Position numbers and translations under genes: made by a program. Below, piece by piece: positions 19,223 through 46,786 of a stretch of 52,422 nt of DNA. The notes beneath the pieces were generated by a model. It did no database searches. It had not been told where the DNA came from and saw nothing but the letters and a program-made list of their open reading frames with translations. Source of the stretch: Candidatus Woesearchaeota archaeon (lineage in GTDB: Archaea > Nanobdellota > Nanobdellia > Woesearchaeales > B54-G15); NCBI GenBank assembly GCA_003648985.1, contig QMQQ01000001.1:1-52422 (forward strand), written 5' to 3'. Each line of letters begins with the position of its first letter. Within the stretch, counting starts at the first letter, position 1.

Positions 19223-20193
19223 GCCATGCATAAGTAGAGGCTTGGGCTGTTGGGAGCTGCATGCTGAACGCCTCGCCGAAGCTCGGCGCTTACACATCAG
19301 CTCCATCAACCTCCTGTTTTAAGGAGGGCCCAAAAGGTGCCTCTTTTTGAGGAGGGCTTCGTCCTTAGATGCCTTCAGGACTTATCCCTATGGCGCGTGG
19401 CTGCCCGGATTTGCCCTGTCGGACATCCGGTAGACCAGAGGCGCCGAAAGCTCGTTCCTCTCGTACTAGAGCTTCCTTCCTCTCAGGCACCCAACATCCC
19501 CAGTAGATATCAAACAAACTGCCTCACAGCGTTCTGAACCCAGCTCATGATCCCTTTTGATCGGTGAACACCCGCACCCTTGGCTCCTTCTGCAGAGCCA
19601 GGATAGGAAAAGCCGACATCGAAGTAGCAAGCCGCGCCGTCGATGTGAGCTCTCGGGCGCGACGACTCAGTTATCCCCGGGGTAACTTTTTGGTCATCCC
19701 AGGGCCCCACCAAGGGGCACACTGAGGTTCGCTAGGCCAGCATTTCTGCCCTGCGTTCTATCTTAGTAAGAACACAGTCAGGCCAGCTTTTGCCCTTGCA
19801 CTCTACCCCGGATTTCTAACCCGGGTGAGCTGACCTTTGGGCCCCGCTGATATCTTTTCAGCGGGGTGCCGCCCCAGCCAAACTGTCCACCTACCGGTGT
19901 CCTTCCTTTCGGAAGTAAGCAGCACAAACAGTGAAGGGTGGTGTTACATTGGCGCCTAAGATGCTGTCCAAAAACAGCATCCTCAAACAGCTCCCACCTA
20001 CACTATGCAACACTGCTTGCACTGCAGCGGCAGGCTACAGTAAAGTTCCACGGGGTCTTCGCTTCCCACTGGGGATCCCAGGCATTTGCACCTGGCAGGG
20101 TGTTCGGCGGGATCCGGCTTGGGACAGTGGCGACCTCGTTACGTCCTTCATGCAGGCCGGCATTCAACCGGCAAGGCATTTCGCTACCTTAAG

Positions 20194-20907
20194 CAGCTCG
20201 TAAGAGCCGGACCGTATCTTCATCTCCTTCATTAATCAGGAGATGCCCGGCGTACGGTCTCTGAGGATCCCATCAGAGGAAAAATTTCCTTGAGTTTGTA
20301 ACGTCGTTGTTTACCTTCCATGTTCATTTTATATGCCAGCTTTACTAAACGTTCAAAACCCTCGCGTGTTCTATGTTCCTTTCTTTCCATAGCTAAAATA
20401 ATTTCTCTGAACTTCTGATAATCGTTCCATTTTACTATTGGTTTATATTTGTCAAGGAAGTTAATTAATTTCTCTTTAAGTAATCTTCTGTTATCGATGA
20501 CAAACACTAAAAGATTTTTTTGGCCTGATTTTTCAATTATCCTTCCTGCATTTAGTGTTTTCTTCAGCAATTCTAGAACCACCCTGTTTTGTTTATGCTG
20601 TGTCAATGTAAATACTGGATCTAACACGTAACCGAATTTCGCTGTCTTTAGTTTTTTAATGCTTACTGAAAAGCAACCTTCTGCGTCTATGAATCCCAAC
20701 AAATAATATCTTAGGTATTTTCCTCTTTTTGGGATTCTGCTAAGCTCTATTATTCCATTATACTCCCATAAAGGCATTTTTCCACCTCCGATGGTTTCCT
20801 GCTGATTGTCATCATCGCTTCAGAATTTTTTCCTTGCTCAGGATTCTGAAGCTCAAACTTCCCAGCATATAGCCGGGTTTTACAACTCCCTTAGCCGCAT
20901 TTGGCTG
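20194..20907 (-). mobile_element. Group I-type intron in 23S rRNA (helix 69/70 region, near E. coli position about 1925), carrying a homing-endonuclease ORF
   Basis: The exons rejoin to the conserved GGGAGUAACUAUAACUCUC/UUAAGGUAGCGAAAUGCC. The U-1/omegaG boundaries, P1, P10 and the P3, P7-P3'-P8-P7'-P9 order are readable; see findings. Confidence 0.7.
20232..20777 (-). CDS. LAGLIDADG homing endonuclease (single-motif, I-CreI-like architecture), intron-encoded
   Basis: YYLLGFIDAEGCFSVSI is a single LAGLIDADG motif in a 181-aa protein. The ORF is AT-rich and embedded in GC-rich rRNA. Its last 9 codons run into the intron core helices. Confidence 0.9.
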   Translation of the reverse strand: MPLWEYNGIIELSRIPKRGKYLRYYLLGFIDAEGCFSVSIKKLKTAKFGYVLDPVFTLTQHKQNRVVLELLKKTLNAGRIIEKSGQKNLLVFVIDNRRLLKEKLINFLDKYKPIVKWNDYQKFREIILAMERKEHRTREGFERLVKLAYKMNMEGKQRRYKLKEIFPLMGSSETVRRASPD

Positions 20908-21726
20908 AGAGTTATAGTTACTCCCGCCGTTTACCGGTCCTTAACCTCCTTGGACAGAGGGTTCGGATACCGGCACCGGGCAGGCGTCACCGACCATACA
21001 CACCTTTGCAGGCTTGCGGTCGGATGCGTTTTTGTTAAACAGTCGGGCCACCCTTGTCACTGCGCCCTGCTTTCGCATCTCGGGGACACGAAAGCAGGGA
21101 CCCCTTCTACCGAAGATACAGGGCTAATTTGCCGATTTCCCTAAGCCGGATTAACCCTTCACGCCTTAGCCTTCTCAGCTAGGGGCACCTGTGCTGGTTC
21201 TGGGTACGGTTGCCGAGGATTTTTTCTTGCTCCTTTTTCAGGGGCTCCAGGAATCAGCTGAATCCTGCATAACAGGACTATTCCCAGGTTTACTCTGGTT
21301 CTCTGCATTACGCAACTCCCCAGAGTTATCCTGGTTAACATAGCAGACAAGCTATGTCAGCTTAACCTGAAGCGTCAGGAGCAAGACTTGCGTTGCCGCG
21401 CATACCTCGGCAGTAGGCGAATGTTAACGCCTTTCCCTTTCCCTGCTGTCCTGTTAGGAAGCAGGTTAGGACCGACTAACCCTTGGCTGATCGGCATTGC
21501 CAAGGAACCCTTGCCCTTTCGGCGGTGCCGATTCTCACGGCACTAAGATCCTACTACCGCCAGGATTCTCATTCCTACGAGGTCCACTCTCTCTTGCGAG
21601 AAAGCTTCTGCCCTCGCAGGACGCCCGCCTACCACACAGCCGAAGCTGATCTGCAGTATCGGTGACCAGCTTAACCCCGTCCATTTTCGGGACCCGCGAC
21701 CTCGACGGGTAAGCTGTTACGCACTT

Positions 21727-21758
<32 letters not shown>

Positions 21759-22384
21759 CCGCTGTCTCAGGCCGCGGACACCCTTCACCCTTTAATACTT
21801 AGCTGGCACTTTGGGACCTTAACTGCAGTCTGGGTTGTTCCCCTCTCGGAGCTCAAGTTTACCCCGAGCCCCTGTTTCCTTGCTTCTACGGTGCTGAAGC
21901 ATTCGGAGTTGGACAAGGAGGCGATCCTTTGCAGAACCCACACTCCCAATCCGTAGCTCTACCACTTCAGCTACCTCTGCAAGGACTTGACTACGGCCAA
22001 TTTCGGCGGGAACCAGCTATCACCAGGCTCGATTGGCTTTTTACCCCTACTCCCAGGTCATCCGAACGCTTGCCCGCAGCACCGGTTCGGACCTTCACCT
22101 TCTGCTAAGAAGGCTTCATCCTACCCAGGAGTAGATCGCCCGGTTTCGGGTCGTAGCTGAGTGACTTGAGGCCCTTTCAAACCTCGCCCCTTGCAGCAAA
22201 AGCTGCTGCGGGCTTTTTGCTTTCGCTATGGGTATTGTCTGCACAAGACATTACCCTCGCCACTCAACTACACTCCCTGGCCCGTTATTCGAAACGGACA
22301 GTGCAACTTCTCAGCAAAAGCTGAAAAGCCGCACCTTCCTGTTGCTGTTAGGTTTCAGGCTCTTTTCACTCTCCGGCAAGAGTT

Positions 22385-22422
<38 letters not shown>

Positions 22423-22981
22423 GCTCTATGAGTATTTAGGGTTGGATGTTGGTGGCACCCAGCTTCCTGCCTAGTATCCAGTAGACAGTACTCAGGAATT
22501 GCCCGACTTCTCTTTGAGTTACTCCTACGGGGCTTTCACCCTCTATGGCGTCCCATTCCAGGGAACTTCGGATTTCCCAAAGAGAAGCCATGCGGGCAAT
22601 CCACCACACCACATCGCTATTCGCATTGCTGCGAACAGCTTCGGTTTGCCCTGTGCCCCTTTCATTCGCCATTACTCAGGGCATCCCTGTTGGTTTCTTT
22701 TCCTGCCGGTACTAAGATGTTTCAATTCCCGGCGTTCCTGATCCTTTCGGATCATTCCTTAGCGGAATGCGAAGTCGCATTCAGGAATCCTCGGTTCTAA
22801 GCCTGCGTGCGGCTCGCCGAGGCTTATCGCAGCTTGCCACGCCCTTCATCAGCTATAGAGCCAAGCCATCCACCTAACAGCTTCTTGCCTCTACCTATGC
22901 ATGGCCTCATCAACATAATGTCTTGGCCCTTTGTTCAGGATTGCAAAATCCTGAACTGCATCTAAAGTAAAACAATGAATA

Positions 22982-23104
22982 TGGACCCGTCGGGATTTTC
23001 GGTAGAGCTTTCGAACCCGAGGCCTCCGCCTGTCTTGCCTGAGTAAGCAAGCTCTTGCCCGCAAATTGCAAGGGCGACGCTCTACCAGGCTGAGCTACGG
23101 GCCC
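22982..23104 (-). tRNA. tRNA-Ala(UGC) in the 16S-23S spacer, with two introns (35 nt at 37/38, 14 nt in the T-loop at about 59/60)
   Basis: The reverse complement reads GGGCCCG-TA-GCTC..GAGC-G-TCGCC-CTTGCA[35 nt]A-GGCGG-AGGCC-TCGGG-TTCGAA[14 nt]T-CCCGA-CGGGTCC-A. The G3:U70 Ala identity pair is present. The mature length is 74 nt. Confidence 0.85.
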
Positions 23105-23151: not shown

Positions 23152-24633
<1,482 letters not shown>

Positions 24634-29264: not shown

Positions 29265-29370
29265 TGGGCCCGCGGGGATTTGAACCCCGGACCTCCGGTT
29301 AGCCTAGACCCCTCTGTATAGAGCACGGCCATATAAGACCGGCGCTCTAACCAGGCTAAGCTACGGGCCC
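29265..29370 (-). tRNA. tRNA-Ile(UAU) with a 31-nt canonical (37/38) intron
   Basis: The reverse complement reads GGGCCCG-TA-GCTT..GAGC-G-CCGGT-CTTATA[31 nt]A-ACCGG-AGGTC-CGGGG-TTCAAAT-CCCCG-CGGGCCC-A. A BHB can be drawn: CTTA pairs with TAGG, with bulges TA|T and CT|A. Confidence 0.85.
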
Positions 29371-41273: not shown

Positions 41274-44072
41274 TTACCTTACTTCTATGCCGCCTAAACG
41301 TTTAAACATGCTTAAGCCAAATCTGAGTTTTTCTTTGCTATGCGCATAGAGTGTAAAGATTGGTTCGTCCTTTAAAACAGATTCGCCCTCATGTTTGTAA
41401 AGAAACATGCCTGCATCTTTGTCTTTTGGTGCGCCTGCTGCTCTTGCCATTTTTCTGACAGAGATGCAATCGATATTTGCTATATGGCCTGTCCTTGGTG
41501 CTCTATATGTATATTTAAATGGACCTGGAACAAGATCCTCTGGTTTTATGTTCGGGTCACCTCCTTGAGCTTCTATGATTTCTTTCATTTTTTTATATGC
41601 CTCACCCGATTTAAGGATATTAATTACTTTCTGATGGGCTTTTTTTTCACCGACCATTTCAAGAAGCAAAGTAGCCATTTTAACTGCTTTTCGTTCCAGA
41701 TCGCGAGGTCTTCTTGGATCACGCATTAAAGTCCAGAGTATTGTCTTTGCTTCTAAGATTGGACCTATTCCATTGCCAATCGGTTCTTTTCCATCACTGA
41801 GCATTACTCTTATGTTCATACCTAAATTTTTTCCAACAAGTTTAAACTTTTTTTCCAGGCTTAGAGCTCTTGTTCTGGTTTTAATCTTTGTTTCTTTTCC
41901 TAACGGGATGTCTATCAAGACATGCGTAGCTCCGACAGCAGCTTTTTTAGCAAGTATTGAAGCTAAAAGCATTCCTTCTGGGTCAAGAGCTAAAGGATCG
42001 CGCAATTTAATCAATTTATCATCAGCTGAAGCAAGTTCCATTGCTCCGCCCCAGACTATGCAACCATTTGTTTTTAATACAATTTTTTTCATTTGTTCAA
42101 GCGTTAAAGCCACTGGTGCAAGAACTTCCATTGTGTCAGCGGTTCCTGCTGGACTAGTTATGCTCCTGCTGCTCGTTTTTGGTATGGTATAACCAGCAGC
42201 AGCGATTATTGGAACAATGAGCATTGATGTCCTATTTCCAGGGACGCCGCCACTACAATTATGAACGCATATTGGTGCAGATCCAACCATAAACTTGTTG
42301 AATCCATCAATTTTGAAATCATAAACATATTTTGAGTCTGATTTTATTTTTTTGATATTTTTTACTTCAAGTACAGACAAATGACCTGTAAGTAATTTCT
42401 TAACATCCTCGCTTTTGATATAATTCATTACGCTAAGCAATTTCTCTTTTGTCATAAATTTTTGTCTTTTTAGACATCTCCTGAACTCCCAACCAACACT
42501 TTTTGTTTCTATCTCTCCGCATTCTTTTATTGGTATAAGATTAATATAAGCGACGTTTGATTTCTTTCTTCCGCCAAACAAGTTCCTCGCCTGGGTGTAA
42601 ATCGTATAAGCAGTAGCTGTCATATATTTTCCACTCGGGAATCTACGTTGAGACTTATTTTTAATAGAAAGTGTTGACGACATACCCAACATGGATAATA
42701 AGTATTGTAGCTCAATAGCAAGTTTTTTTGATACAGTAACATAAGCCGTTTCATATCCACGCCTTGTATGTCCGTCGCACTTGAAAAGCGTTCTAAGAAA
42801 TTCTAATTTCATTTCATCACTAACATCAAAGAGAAAAGAAGGTATGCTCTTTTCTAAAGCTTTTTTTCCAACTTTAAGAGCGTGAAGAATAGAAGACAGA
42901 TTTTGACTATATATAGTAACTCTAACAGCTGTTTTGTGTGGATAGTTAATTGTAGGTTTGATTTTGAATACCTTCTTAATACAGTATATCGCATCTTTGA
43001 TCAGATCTTTCTCATGCGAACCAAAATTTAGAAAGACTCCTTGATAATTCGCAAATCCTTCTGTGATATAGTATCCAAGAAAACGTATAAATTCTGGAGT
43101 TATTTTAATTACGTTTTTGAATTGCTTGCCTCTTTTTTTGGTCTTTACATTTAGTTCAATCTCTTTTATAGGTTTATCGTTTTTTAAACCCGAAGGGACA
43201 ATAACAAAATCGCCTTTTTTTAAAGAACATGCAGGTATGTTTTTTATCTTACCTTTTTTTAGAACAAAAATAGTATGATCGGGAGTGACTTTAATAGTTC
43301 TGTTTCCTCTTAAAGTAATGAGGTATAAATATCTAGGAGAGGGTGCCCTAAATACACCAGAAACAGGTTTGAATTCAACTTCTCCAGCTTCATTGTAAGT
43401 TAGCGCACAAAGGCCATTCAAGTTTTTTGATGTAAATTCAGCTCCGTCTTTATAAACAATATCAGCAGGATCACATTGCGCAAAAATATTGTCTATTACT
43501 TCTCCTATTGATTTAACTTTAACACTGCCGCTGTTTCTAATCATGACTGGAACATCCCATGATAAACAATGCTTATCAAGGATTGGATGTCTATTAAGCT
43601 TTAATTTTCCGCCATAATGGACTATTGCCTTTGTTAGGTTAACTGTCTCATCTAAAGTCATGCCTTTCGTATAGCATGCGCCGATAAAATATGTAAGTTC
43701 AACTTGACTAAGTTTATCTTCAACCAATTCTTTTATTATTTCAAATATTTCTTTTCGTTTAAGCGGAATTCCGTCTAACTTTTTTTTGATGGCGAAGACG
43801 CCAGAAGGTTTTGGCCTTAAATCGATATCAACAATATCGCCATCTTTCACATTCAGCTTCTTTAGAACTTCTTCAAACAAGCCTATATGCCCTTTTGGAA
43901 CTGCTTTTTCAGTTTGAGCAATATCAACTATCGCTGTTGTTTCACGTTTTCTGAATTTTATTTTTATACGGTCTTCTGAAAATAAATCAAGCCTTCGAGC
44001 ATCTTCCTCATTAAGCACAGCTATTAGTATGCCTCCAGTTGCTATGTCCATGTCTCTTACAACGAGCTTCAA
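41274..44072 (-). CDS. deoA: AMP phosphorylase (thymidine phosphorylase family, DeoA) interrupted by an intein
   Basis: The N-terminal MKLVVRDMDIATGGILIAVLNEEDA domain is typical of archaeal AMPpase. The catalytic motif ILDKH / CSGGVPGNRTS is split by 437 aa. The extein total of 495 aa is a normal length. Confidence 0.9.
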   Translation of the reverse strand: MKLVVRDMDIATGGILIAVLNEEDARRLDLFSEDRIKIKFRKRETTAIVDIAQTEKAVPKGHIGLFEEVLKKLNVKDGDIVDIDLRPKPSGVFAIKKKLDGIPLKRKEIFEIIKELVEDKLSQVELTYFIGACYTKGMTLDETVNLTKAIVHYGGKLKLNRHPILDKHCLSWDVPVMIRNSGSVKVKSIGEVIDNIFAQCDPADIVYKDGAEFTSKNLNGLCALTYNEAGEVEFKPVSGVFRAPSPRYLYLITLRGNRTIKVTPDHTIFVLKKGKIKNIPACSLKKGDFVIVPSGLKNDKPIKEIELNVKTKKRGKQFKNVIKITPEFIRFLGYYITEGFANYQGVFLNFGSHEKDLIKDAIYCIKKVFKIKPTINYPHKTAVRVTIYSQNLSSILHALKVGKKALEKSIPSFLFDVSDEMKLEFLRTLFKCDGHTRRGYETAYVTVSKKLAIELQYLLSMLGMSSTLSIKNKSQRRFPSGKYMTATAYTIYTQARNLFGGRKKSNVAYINLIPIKECGEIETKSVGWEFRRCLKRQKFMTKEKLLSVMNYIKSEDVKKLLTGHLSVLEVKNIKKIKSDSKYVYDFKIDGFNKFMVGSAPICVHNCSGGVPGNRTSMLIVPIIAAAGYTIPKTSSRSITSPAGTADTMEVLAPVALTLEQMKKIVLKTNGCIVWGGAMELASADDKLIKLRDPLALDPEGMLLASILAKKAAVGATHVLIDIPLGKETKIKTRTRALSLEKKFKLVGKNLGMNIRVMLSDGKEPIGNGIGPILEAKTILWTLMRDPRRPRDLERKAVKMATLLLEMVGEKKAHQKVINILKSGEAYKKMKEIIEAQGGDPNIKPEDLVPGPFKYTYRAPRTGHIANIDCISVRKMARAAGAPKDKDAGMFLYKHEGESVLKDEPIFTLYAHSKEKLRFGLSMFKRLGGIEVR
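42258..43568 (-). mobile_element. Intein (Hint splicing domain plus two-motif LAGLIDADG homing endonuclease), 437 aa
   Basis: It begins with Cys (CLSWDVPVMI, codon 169). Two LAGLIDADG motifs are present (FLGYYITEGFANY, EFLRTLFKCDGH). It ends ...APICVHN and is followed by the +1 Cys (CSGGVPG). Confidence 0.88.
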
Positions 44073-46598: not shown

Positions 46599-46786
46599 AG
46601 CCCCGTGGTGTAGCGGTCAAGCATCCAGGCCTTTGGAGCCTGGGACGGCGGTTCGAATTAACCCTTTCCGCCAAACTTTTAGAAAAAGTTTGATCAAAAA
46701 CGGAAAAAGTGCACCTTCGGTGCAACCAAACTTTTAGAAAAAGTTTGATCAAAAACGGAAAGGGAACGAAAATCCGCCCGGGGCTA
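46599..46786 (+). tRNA. tRNA-Gln(UUG) with a 115-nt intron in the T-loop (59/60)
   Basis: AGCCCCG-TG-GTGT..CAGGC-CTTTGGA-GCCTG-GGAC-GGCGG-TTCGAA[46658..46772]T-CCGCC-CGGGGCT-A. The mature length is 73 nt. The BHB comprises the central helix TTCG/CGAA, two AA|T bulges and the outer helix CCCTTTCCG/CGGAAAGGG. Confidence 0.8.
46671..46761 (+). repeat. Perfect 36-nt direct repeat (2 copies, 55-nt period) inside the tRNA-Gln intron
   Basis: CCAAACTTTTAGAAAAAGTTTGATCAAAAACGGAAA occurs at 46671..46706 and 46726..46761. Each copy contains the hairpin AAACTTTT-AGA-AAAAGTTT. The spacer holds the hairpin GCACC-TTC-GGTGC. Confidence 0.9.

Follow-up and report, generated by a model that had tools for sequence, protein, structure and literature searches.

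A spacer tRNA-Ala(UGC) gene of a woesearchaeal archaeon is interrupted by a canonical and a T-loop intron

The window analysed here is a 52,422-nt stretch of DNA, contig C1 of a genome bin of a Candidatus Woesearchaeota archaeon (563 kb, 59 contigs, 37% G+C, ~81% complete), and it carries an rRNA operon on the minus strand. The IleRS of this genome has relatives under the names Candidatus Woesearchaeota and Nanoarchaeota. Neither ARAGORN nor Rfam at the gathering threshold detects a tRNA in the 255-nt 16S-23S spacer of this operon; run on the unspliced locus at a permissive threshold, the Rfam tRNA model reaches 22.5 bits against a cut-off of 29 bits. An earlier note on this DNA had read in the spacer a tRNA-Ala(UGC) broken by two inserts, one of 35 nt after position 37 and one of 14 nt within the T-loop. 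That reading raises the questions of whether the locus is a functional gene, how widespread and how mobile its T-loop intron is, and how so short an intron could be removed. The source genome is compared throughout with G001, an independently assembled genome of the same genus (97% complete).

Anatomy and functional status of the spacer tRNA-Ala(UGC)

Read on the minus strand from 23104 to 22982, the locus begins with GGGCCCG TA GCTC AGCCTGGTA GAGC G TCGCC CTTGCA, followed by intron 1 (ATTTGCGGGCAAGAGCTTGCTTACTCAGGCAAGAC), and continues with A GGCGG AGGCC TCGGG TTCGAA, intron 2 (AGCTCTACCGAAAA) and T CCCGA CGGGTCC A (Table 1). When both inserts were spliced out in silico, ARAGORN recognized a perfect 74-nt tRNA-Ala(UGC) with the G3:U70 identity pair. 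Removal of the T-loop insert alone gave the same tRNA with a 35-nt canonical intron, and no tRNA was called on the unspliced locus or on the locus with only the 35-nt insert removed. The gene is thereby confirmed to be split by introns at the 37/38 and 59/60 sites. The two inserts of the earlier note proved exact to the base and the cloverleaf is restored when both are taken out; its CTTG/CAAG and TTCG/CGAA helices, its CA|A, AC|A, AA|A and AA|T bulges and its intact identity pair were all found as it had described them. The BHB-aware prediction that it had called for, carried out as a whole-genome BHB-constrained scan, independently recovered the 14-nt insert (22996-23009). By inspection, other T-loop splice registers (exon TTCGAAA followed by an intron ending in AAAT, or cuts 1-2 bases upstream) leave no 4-bp helix or a T-loop of the wrong length.

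Table 1. Coordinates and lengths of the rRNA genes, the spacer tRNA-Ala(UGC) and the tRNA genes with or without 59/60 introns. Positions without a contig name are those of the window.
Feature	Position	Strand	Length	Description
16S rRNA gene	23153-24632	-		
23S rRNA gene	19231-22897	-		
pre-tRNA-Ala(UGC)	22982..23104	-	123 nt	16S-23S spacer; three exons and two introns; CCA not encoded
tRNA-Ala(UGC) exon 1	23067..23104	-		Positions 1-37: acceptor 5′ strand, D arm, anticodon stem 5′ strand, loop CUUGCA with anticodon UGC; 38/38 identical to congener
tRNA-Ala(UGC) intron 1	23032..23066	-	35 nt	Canonical 37/38 site
tRNA-Ala(UGC) exon 2	23010..23031	-		Positions 38-59: anticodon stem 3′ strand, variable loop, T-stem 5′ strand, T-loop TTCGAA; 22/22 identical to congener
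tRNA-Ala(UGC) intron 2, AGCUCUACCGAAAA	22996..23009	-	14 nt	59/60 site in the T-loop
tRNA-Ala(UGC) exon 3	22982..22995	-		U60, T-stem 3′ strand, acceptor 3′ strand with U70, discriminator A73; 14/14 identical to congener
tRNA-Gln(UUG)	46599..46786	+		
tRNA-Gln(UUG) 59/60 intron	46658-46772	+	115 nt	TTCG/CGAA helix, AA|T bulges
tRNA-Gln(CUG) 59/60 intron	Contig C8		62 nt	
tRNA-Ser(GCU) 59/60 intron			44 nt	
tRNA-Asp(GUC) 59/60 intron			42 nt	
tRNA-Lys(UUU) 59/60 intron			29 nt	
tRNA-Pro(UGG) 59/60 intron			39 nt	
G001 tRNA-Leu locus L128	G001:C12:11650-11950			Intron-bearing
G001 tRNA-Leu locus L129	G001:C9:12350-12660			Intron-bearing
Source-genome syntenic tRNA-Leu gene	C11:2335-2420			Intronless
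Source-genome syntenic tRNA-Leu gene	C6:6153-6239			Intronless

The central helix of intron 1 is formed by C32-G35 (23072..23069) and the CAAG sequence (23037..23034) located 4-7 bases from the 3′ end of the intron, and it is stacked on the anticodon stem. A clean 3-nt bulge, AC|A, holds its 3′ splice site; its 5′ site, CA|A, is part of an internal loop that only a weak inner helix (U.G, U.G, U-A, G-C) could close. In intron 2, T54-G57 (23015..23012) pair with CGAA (23001..22998) in the 3′ part of the intron, the pairing of the 59/60 T-loop class, and the resulting helix sits directly on the T-stem. The 3′ splice site is in a 3-nt bulge, AA|U, adjoining that stem, and the 5′ site, AA|A, is inside a 10-nt hairpin loop without an inner helix. 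The local MFE fold of the T arm with intron 2, folded alone, consists of the T-stem, the 4-bp helix, the 3-nt bulge and the 10-nt loop, and it bears out the earlier description of the T-loop intron as a relaxed BHB without a second flanking helix. The strict hBHBh′ motif, with two 3-nt bulges, a 4-bp helix and helices on both sides, is formed by neither intron. Both retain the outer helix, the 4-bp central helix and the clean 3-nt 3′ bulge, and on each strand the splice site is 2 nt 3′ of the central helix, as in the relaxed hBH (bulge-helix-loop) motif. Since their 5′ sites lie in a hairpin loop and an internal loop, respectively, we assign introns 2 and 1 to the relaxed hBH subclass.

At -52.5 kcal/mol, the MFE fold of the whole precursor is not the one competent for splicing (-46.1 kcal/mol): in it, the D-arm strand GGUAGAGC is paired with intron 2 (GCUCUACC). 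The free part of intron 2 (23009-22996) includes an 8-bp perfect Watson-Crick complement of D-arm positions G18-C25 (23087-23080, minus strand) and resembles the D-stem 5′ strand (GCUC) as well.

Queried with the mature sequence, neither the 81%-complete source bin nor the 97%-complete G001 yielded a further tRNA-Ala(UGC) gene, and GCA is the commonest alanine codon in eight long ORFs (161 of 335). The exons are identical between the two genomes at 74/74 positions; intron 1 matches at 23/36 positions with indels, and the spacer flanks are 79-90% identical. In G001, intron 1 is 31 nt long with a different interior, its central helix being kept as CTTG/CAGG through a U-A to U.G change, and intron 2 is 13 nt long (AGCTCTACGAAAA), one deletion away from the 14 nt found here. 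This contrast between exon and intron divergence points to a gene under selection whose introns are apparently constrained solely at the splicing signal. The exon identity, the failure to find a second gene in the two genomes and the codon usage agree with the earlier opinion that the gene is functional. We consider it very probable that this DPANN archaeon of Woesearchaeota type has here its only tRNA-Ala(UGC) gene, a functional one that is expressed in a 16S-tRNA-23S precursor and carries two protein-spliced BHB-type introns.

The opposite reading, that of a tRNA-Ala gene in decay or without function, with the 14-nt insert as a scar retained in the RNA and the GCA codons read by another tRNA, seems very improbable. 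It draws on the small size of intron 2, the shortest of the tRNA-Ala series, on the missing part of its canonical signal and on a source genome that is only 81% complete. Nevertheless, decay would hardly leave two species with the same exons while introns and flanks diverge; the 97%-complete congener also lacks another tRNA-Ala(UGC) gene for the most used alanine codon, and the intron 2 helix and 3′ bulge are intact and fit the covarying pattern found across the order. An assembly or sequencing artefact of a metagenome-assembled contig would be in keeping with a bin fragmented into 59 contigs. However, its probability is close to nil, as the same structure, but for 1 nt, recurs in the congener, which was assembled independently, and 14 further families carry an intron at the same position.

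For the functional, two-intron gene, we propose the following splicing route. The tRNA-Ala(UGC) would be transcribed within the 16S-tRNA-23S precursor, in which C32-G35 of the anticodon loop would pair with CAAG near the 3′ end of intron 1, and the universally conserved T54-G57 of the T-loop with CGAA near the 3′ end of intron 2. Seated on a tRNA stem, each 4-bp helix would display the 3′ splice site in its 3-nt bulge; the 5′ splice sites, 2 bases 3′ of the helix, would be offered in the internal loop of intron 1 and the hairpin loop of intron 2. EndA would then cut the four sites and RtcB would ligate the three exons into a standard 74-nt tRNA, to which CCA would be added. The route builds on the observed gene anatomy, conservation, helix covariation and enzyme complement, and from these we infer the actual cutting and joining, together with the acceptance of loop-embedded 5′ sites by EndA.

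Distribution and mobility of T-loop introns

The whole-genome scan was constrained to BHB structures with a 4-bp helix, 3-nt bulges and a 3-bp outer helix, and ARAGORN was run on each spliced candidate. Seven tRNAs with a 59/60 intron were identified in the source genome (Table 1), and G001 retains every one of these introns. On inspection, a good inner helix is evident in six of them and missing only from the tRNA-Ala intron. The same scan recovered three canonical introns, in tRNA-Ile(UAU), tRNA-Leu(CAA) and a tRNA-Trp(CCA)-like gene on contig C37, and it found no non-canonical introns outside the 59/60 site in the source genome. Standard tRNA finders (ARAGORN, and Rfam at default settings) miss tRNA-Ala(UGC) and the six others; therefore, the organism would seem to be without tRNA-Ala(UGC), tRNA-Asp, tRNA-Lys(UUU), tRNA-Gln, tRNA-Ser(GCU) and a proper tRNA-Pro(UGG).

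To place the tRNA-Ala intron among its relatives, we surveyed 19 readable 16S-23S spacers, taken from one genome per related family plus the source genome. A 59/60 intron is present in 16 of the 19 spacer tRNA-Ala(UGC) genes, with lengths of 13-44 nt and unrelated interiors. A canonical intron occurs in addition in about half of the spacer genes and a D-loop intron in two, and one gene combines all three kinds. The D-loop introns belong to loci of two related families, L012 (G003) and L014 (G036), and it is the latter gene that holds three introns, in the D-loop and at the 37/38 and 59/60 sites. In the 16 intron-bearing genes, 97% of the stem and helix cells are paired, and the base pair joining position 57 to the intron is A-U in some genes and G-C in others. 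The observed pairing score was reached by none of 500 shuffles, and the pairing collapsed in all slid registers.

At the level of the order, we used the pattern GGTTCRAA-N5-35-YGAANN-TCC, a restrictive one limited to tRNAs whose T-stem ends in GG/CC and to introns of 12-42 nt. It matches 97 of the 121 genomes of the order (~80%), with ~400 matches versus 46 in the reversed control, and 11 of 19 genomes from other orders of the class. Among the 147 matches listed, the pair between position 57 and the intron is A:U in 96, G:C in 34, G:U in 12 and A:C in 5, a covariation with a Fisher p value of 5e-18 in genomes that are related and thus not independent. Mini-introns of 12-16 nt with an inner helix of 0-2 bp account for 12 of these 147 listed matches. 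Those that were fetched lie in tRNA-Gln, tRNA-Lys, tRNA-Asp, tRNA-Leu and other tRNAs of other families, often beside D-loop introns. The 59/60 site recurs because every tRNA offers the same TTCR partner to an intron ending in YGAA-NN, so that any tRNA can host an intron of this type or become its new site. The wider value of these data is an order-wide picture in which 59/60 is a preferred, portable insertion site.

The earlier note had matched the T-loop intron of tRNA-Ala to that of tRNA-Gln(UUG) and had taken their common design to be a lineage-specific and possibly propagating intron type. The match stands: both introns are at 59/60 and share the TTCG/CGAA helix, with AA|T bulges in tRNA-Gln(UUG) and AA|A and AA|T bulges in tRNA-Ala. 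Its count of such tRNAs grew to seven in the survey of the genome; the restriction to one lineage did not last, the design being found in most genomes of the order, in other orders of the class and in ARMAN-2. As for propagation, the case has to be divided between two kinds of 59/60 intron.

In G001, tRNA-Gln(CUG), tRNA-Leu(UAG) and tRNA-Leu(GAG) carry a near-identical 59/60 intron of 49-50 nt, the Leu intron (50 nt) and the tRNA-Gln(CUG) intron being one base apart, TTAACCCTTTCCGCCTTCGGCG(C)AAAGCGTTAACGGAAAGGGAACGAAAA. The syntenic Leu genes of the source genome are intronless (Table 1), and the orthologs have near-identical flanks and exact insert boundaries. In tRNA-Leu(UAG), the intronless gene has A at position 57 and the intron-bearing gene has G, which fits the CGAA of the intron. 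The introns of tRNA-Gln(UUG) and tRNA-Gln(CUG) in the source genome belong to the same family as the G001 Leu introns, and the tRNA-Gln(CUG) of a different family holds a homologous intron. Given the near-identical copies and the empty orthologous Leu sites, the Gln-type family has therefore been recently gained or lost in unrelated tRNAs, and the Leu genes of the two congeners give a clear-cut example, inside one genus, of an intron gained or lost between species, of some value beyond this locus. No C/D-box guide motifs were seen by eye in the Gln-type intron. Within the 115-nt intron of tRNA-Gln(UUG) (46658-46772, plus strand), a unit of ~36 nt, CCAAACTTTTAGAAAAAGTTTGATCAAAAACGGAAA, is directly duplicated around a GTGCACC-TTCG-GGTGCAA hairpin, and the 62-nt intron of tRNA-Gln(CUG) on contig C8 contains a single copy of the ~36-nt unit.

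The two marks of a transposing family, near-identical copies and empty sites, were found for the Gln-type family and not for the tRNA-Ala introns, of which no similar copy was noticed among the other introns of the source genome or G001. The suggestion of a propagating intron thus holds for the Gln-type 59/60 family, with its G001 Gln copy, its two G001 Leu copies and the empty sites here, and finds no support in the 14-nt tRNA-Ala intron. The 59/60 site of tRNA-Ala is occupied in the same tRNA across many families, and the history of its 14-nt intron looks like long residence at one site followed by shrinkage.

Splicing enzymes and removal of the 14-nt intron

EndA and RtcB, the two enzymes of the proposed route, were both located: RtcB on contig C7, the 3′ end of EndA on contig C27 and a complete EndA in G001. 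RtcB (C7:10777-13566, minus strand) lies in a 982-aa open frame in which profile positions 1-28 and 28-426 match ~1.5 kb apart, which suggests an intein inside the tRNA ligase gene. EndA gave no Pfam match in the source bin. Its last 8 codons (WECRWIRP, then a stop) are found at C27:1-26, followed by the same neighbour gene as in G001, and the other EndA flank matches the end of contig C9. As the edges of C27 and C9 are syntenic with the G001 EndA flanks, EndA falls in an assembly gap, and a gene-content table of this bin would wrongly score it as absent.

G001 encodes one EndA gene of 174 aa with both Pfam domains and aligned catalytic Tyr, His and Lys residues; the solved structures that match it best are those of the N. 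equitans α subunit and the M. jannaschii homotetramer. A survey of 50 high-quality genomes from the order gave exactly one EndA gene in 46 of them, with open frames of ~175-240 aa. In G001, G017 and G018, searches with PF01974, PF02778 or an EndA protein query at E<=10 found no second (β) subunit or paralogue. The EndAs of these three genomes read YDRG(I/V)KPGE(A/D)HA(K/R)W before the catalytic His, have the same length as that of M. jannaschii in this region and are without the KKGKRSER-type basic insertion of N. equitans, called NEQ-specific or L3 loop in the literature. The order presents in these searches a single α-type gene and, in the three aligned enzymes, none of the features of a broad-specificity endonuclease (an ε2 or (αβ)2 architecture or a specificity loop).

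This architecture sits uneasily with the substrate. The α4, α′2 and loop-less heterotetrameric M. kandleri endonucleases are reported to cut relaxed substrates poorly (PMC5829648), and in published assays such enzymes cut solely the well-formed bulge of relaxed substrates. We infer that the woesearchaeal EndA is more tolerant than its architecture suggests, or that mini-introns need something else. That the single small α4-type EndA of the order, without the described specificity loops, removes the 14-nt intron alone is a tentative proposal, and one that we hold to be rather doubtful. If it were true, the rule that relaxed motifs need heterotetrameric, ε2 or loop-bearing endonucleases would fail for this large archaeal group. 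Also counting against the main explanation, that of a functional gene with two protein-spliced introns, the thermodynamic MFE of the precursor is not the splicing-competent fold.

A further explanation is that the mini-intron is removed otherwise than by the ordinary two-site recognition of a plain α4 EndA, through a broader specificity or a helper element; we regard it as unlikely. It takes into account that a 10-nt loop surrounds the 5′ site of intron 2, that 46 of 50 high-quality genomes encode one EndA, that the G001, G017 and G018 enzymes are devoid of an N. equitans-type insertion and that other families repeatedly have mini-introns (12-16 nt, inner helix of 0-2 bp) in their tRNA-Gln, tRNA-Lys, tRNA-Asp and tRNA-Leu. 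A candidate helper is the GCUC(UACC) sequence of the intron, which would pair with the D-arm strand GGUAGAGC in place of the missing inner helix. The 8 contiguous Watson-Crick complements between intron 2 and D-arm G18-C25 have a p value of ~0.005 in simulations, as a single post-hoc observation. However, the complementarity is common only to a close relative, and nothing comparable was seen by eye in four other mini-introns. Additionally, an intron:D-arm helix acting as the inner helix in trans is geometrically incompatible with a simultaneous central helix at its full 7-8 bp, the linker being of zero length. In a weaker variant, the D-arm-complementary sequence of the mini-intron might merely help to present the 5′ site. 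The discrepancy between these relaxed mini-introns and a plain α4 EndA is also of some wider value, as it makes the rule that endonuclease architecture dictates intron type testable.

Known archaeal systems and other features of the window

Fujishima et al. (2011, PMC3239211) reported that the pre-tRNA-Cys(GCA) of ARMAN-2 (Candidatus Micrarchaeum acidiphilum) carries a 59/60 hBH intron that is cleaved in vitro by its EndA, and that its pre-tRNA-Pro(GGG) carries introns at 53/54 and 59/60. The tRNA-Ala intron resembles these in its 59/60 site and in its relaxed hBH on the T-stem, and both organisms are DPANN archaea; the in vitro cleavage is that of ARMAN-2 only. In contrast, ARMAN-2 has a three-unit ε2 endonuclease with a specificity loop (ASL), whereas a single α4-like subunit of ~174 aa was found here, and the host in our case is an rRNA-spacer tRNA-Ala with an intron of just 14 nt.

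As far as the account in PMC4090602 goes, the Thermoproteales and other Crenarchaeota have up to three BHB introns per tRNA (Fujishima et al. 2010), and near-identical introns in unrelated Thermoproteales tRNAs imply spread by "transposition". The 50-nt Gln/Leu intron family of G001 behaves as the transposing introns of that account do. Unlike the introns described there, which occupy many positions and are served by an (αβ)2 EndA with a Crenarchaea-specific loop, the non-canonical introns of the source genome are all at 59/60. Within the scope of the report by Kaneta et al. (2018, PMC5829648), DPANN archaea with an α4 EndA, including a Woesearchaeota genome, show many disrupted tRNAs. Our case belongs to the same phylum-level group and likewise combines an α4 EndA with many non-canonical and multiple introns. 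In that report, however, the tolerance is ascribed to an L3 loop around the catalytic His, while the EndAs aligned here are without an N. equitans-type insertion. The two-intron tRNA-Ala is one more case of this documented DPANN pattern, with a kind of intron that was already known. Interruptions of this sort being known in archaea and common in the group, the find is correct but ordinary.

The 23S gene of the operon (19231-22897) is ~680 nt longer than the Rfam model and contains a 181-aa LAGLIDADG_1 ORF at 20232-20777 (minus strand); a region search of the insert with Rfam gave no group I ribozyme match at E<=0.1. A 932-aa ORF at 41274-44072 (minus strand) combines Glycos_trans_3N, Glycos_transf_3 and PYNP_C domains (nucleoside/AMP phosphorylase-like) with intein splicing and LAGLIDADG_3 domains, and by its domain content it is a predicted intein-containing gene. 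The tRNA-Ile gene at 29265-29370 (minus strand) has a genome-encoded UAU anticodon and a 31-nt canonical intron with a CTTA/TAGG helix and TA|T and CT|A bulges. Outside the window, the small, G+C-rich contig C37 (893-1027, minus strand) encodes a second Trp(CCA)-like tRNA with a 58-nt canonical intron, G37 and an encoded CCA end, which may be bin contamination or a divergent extra gene.
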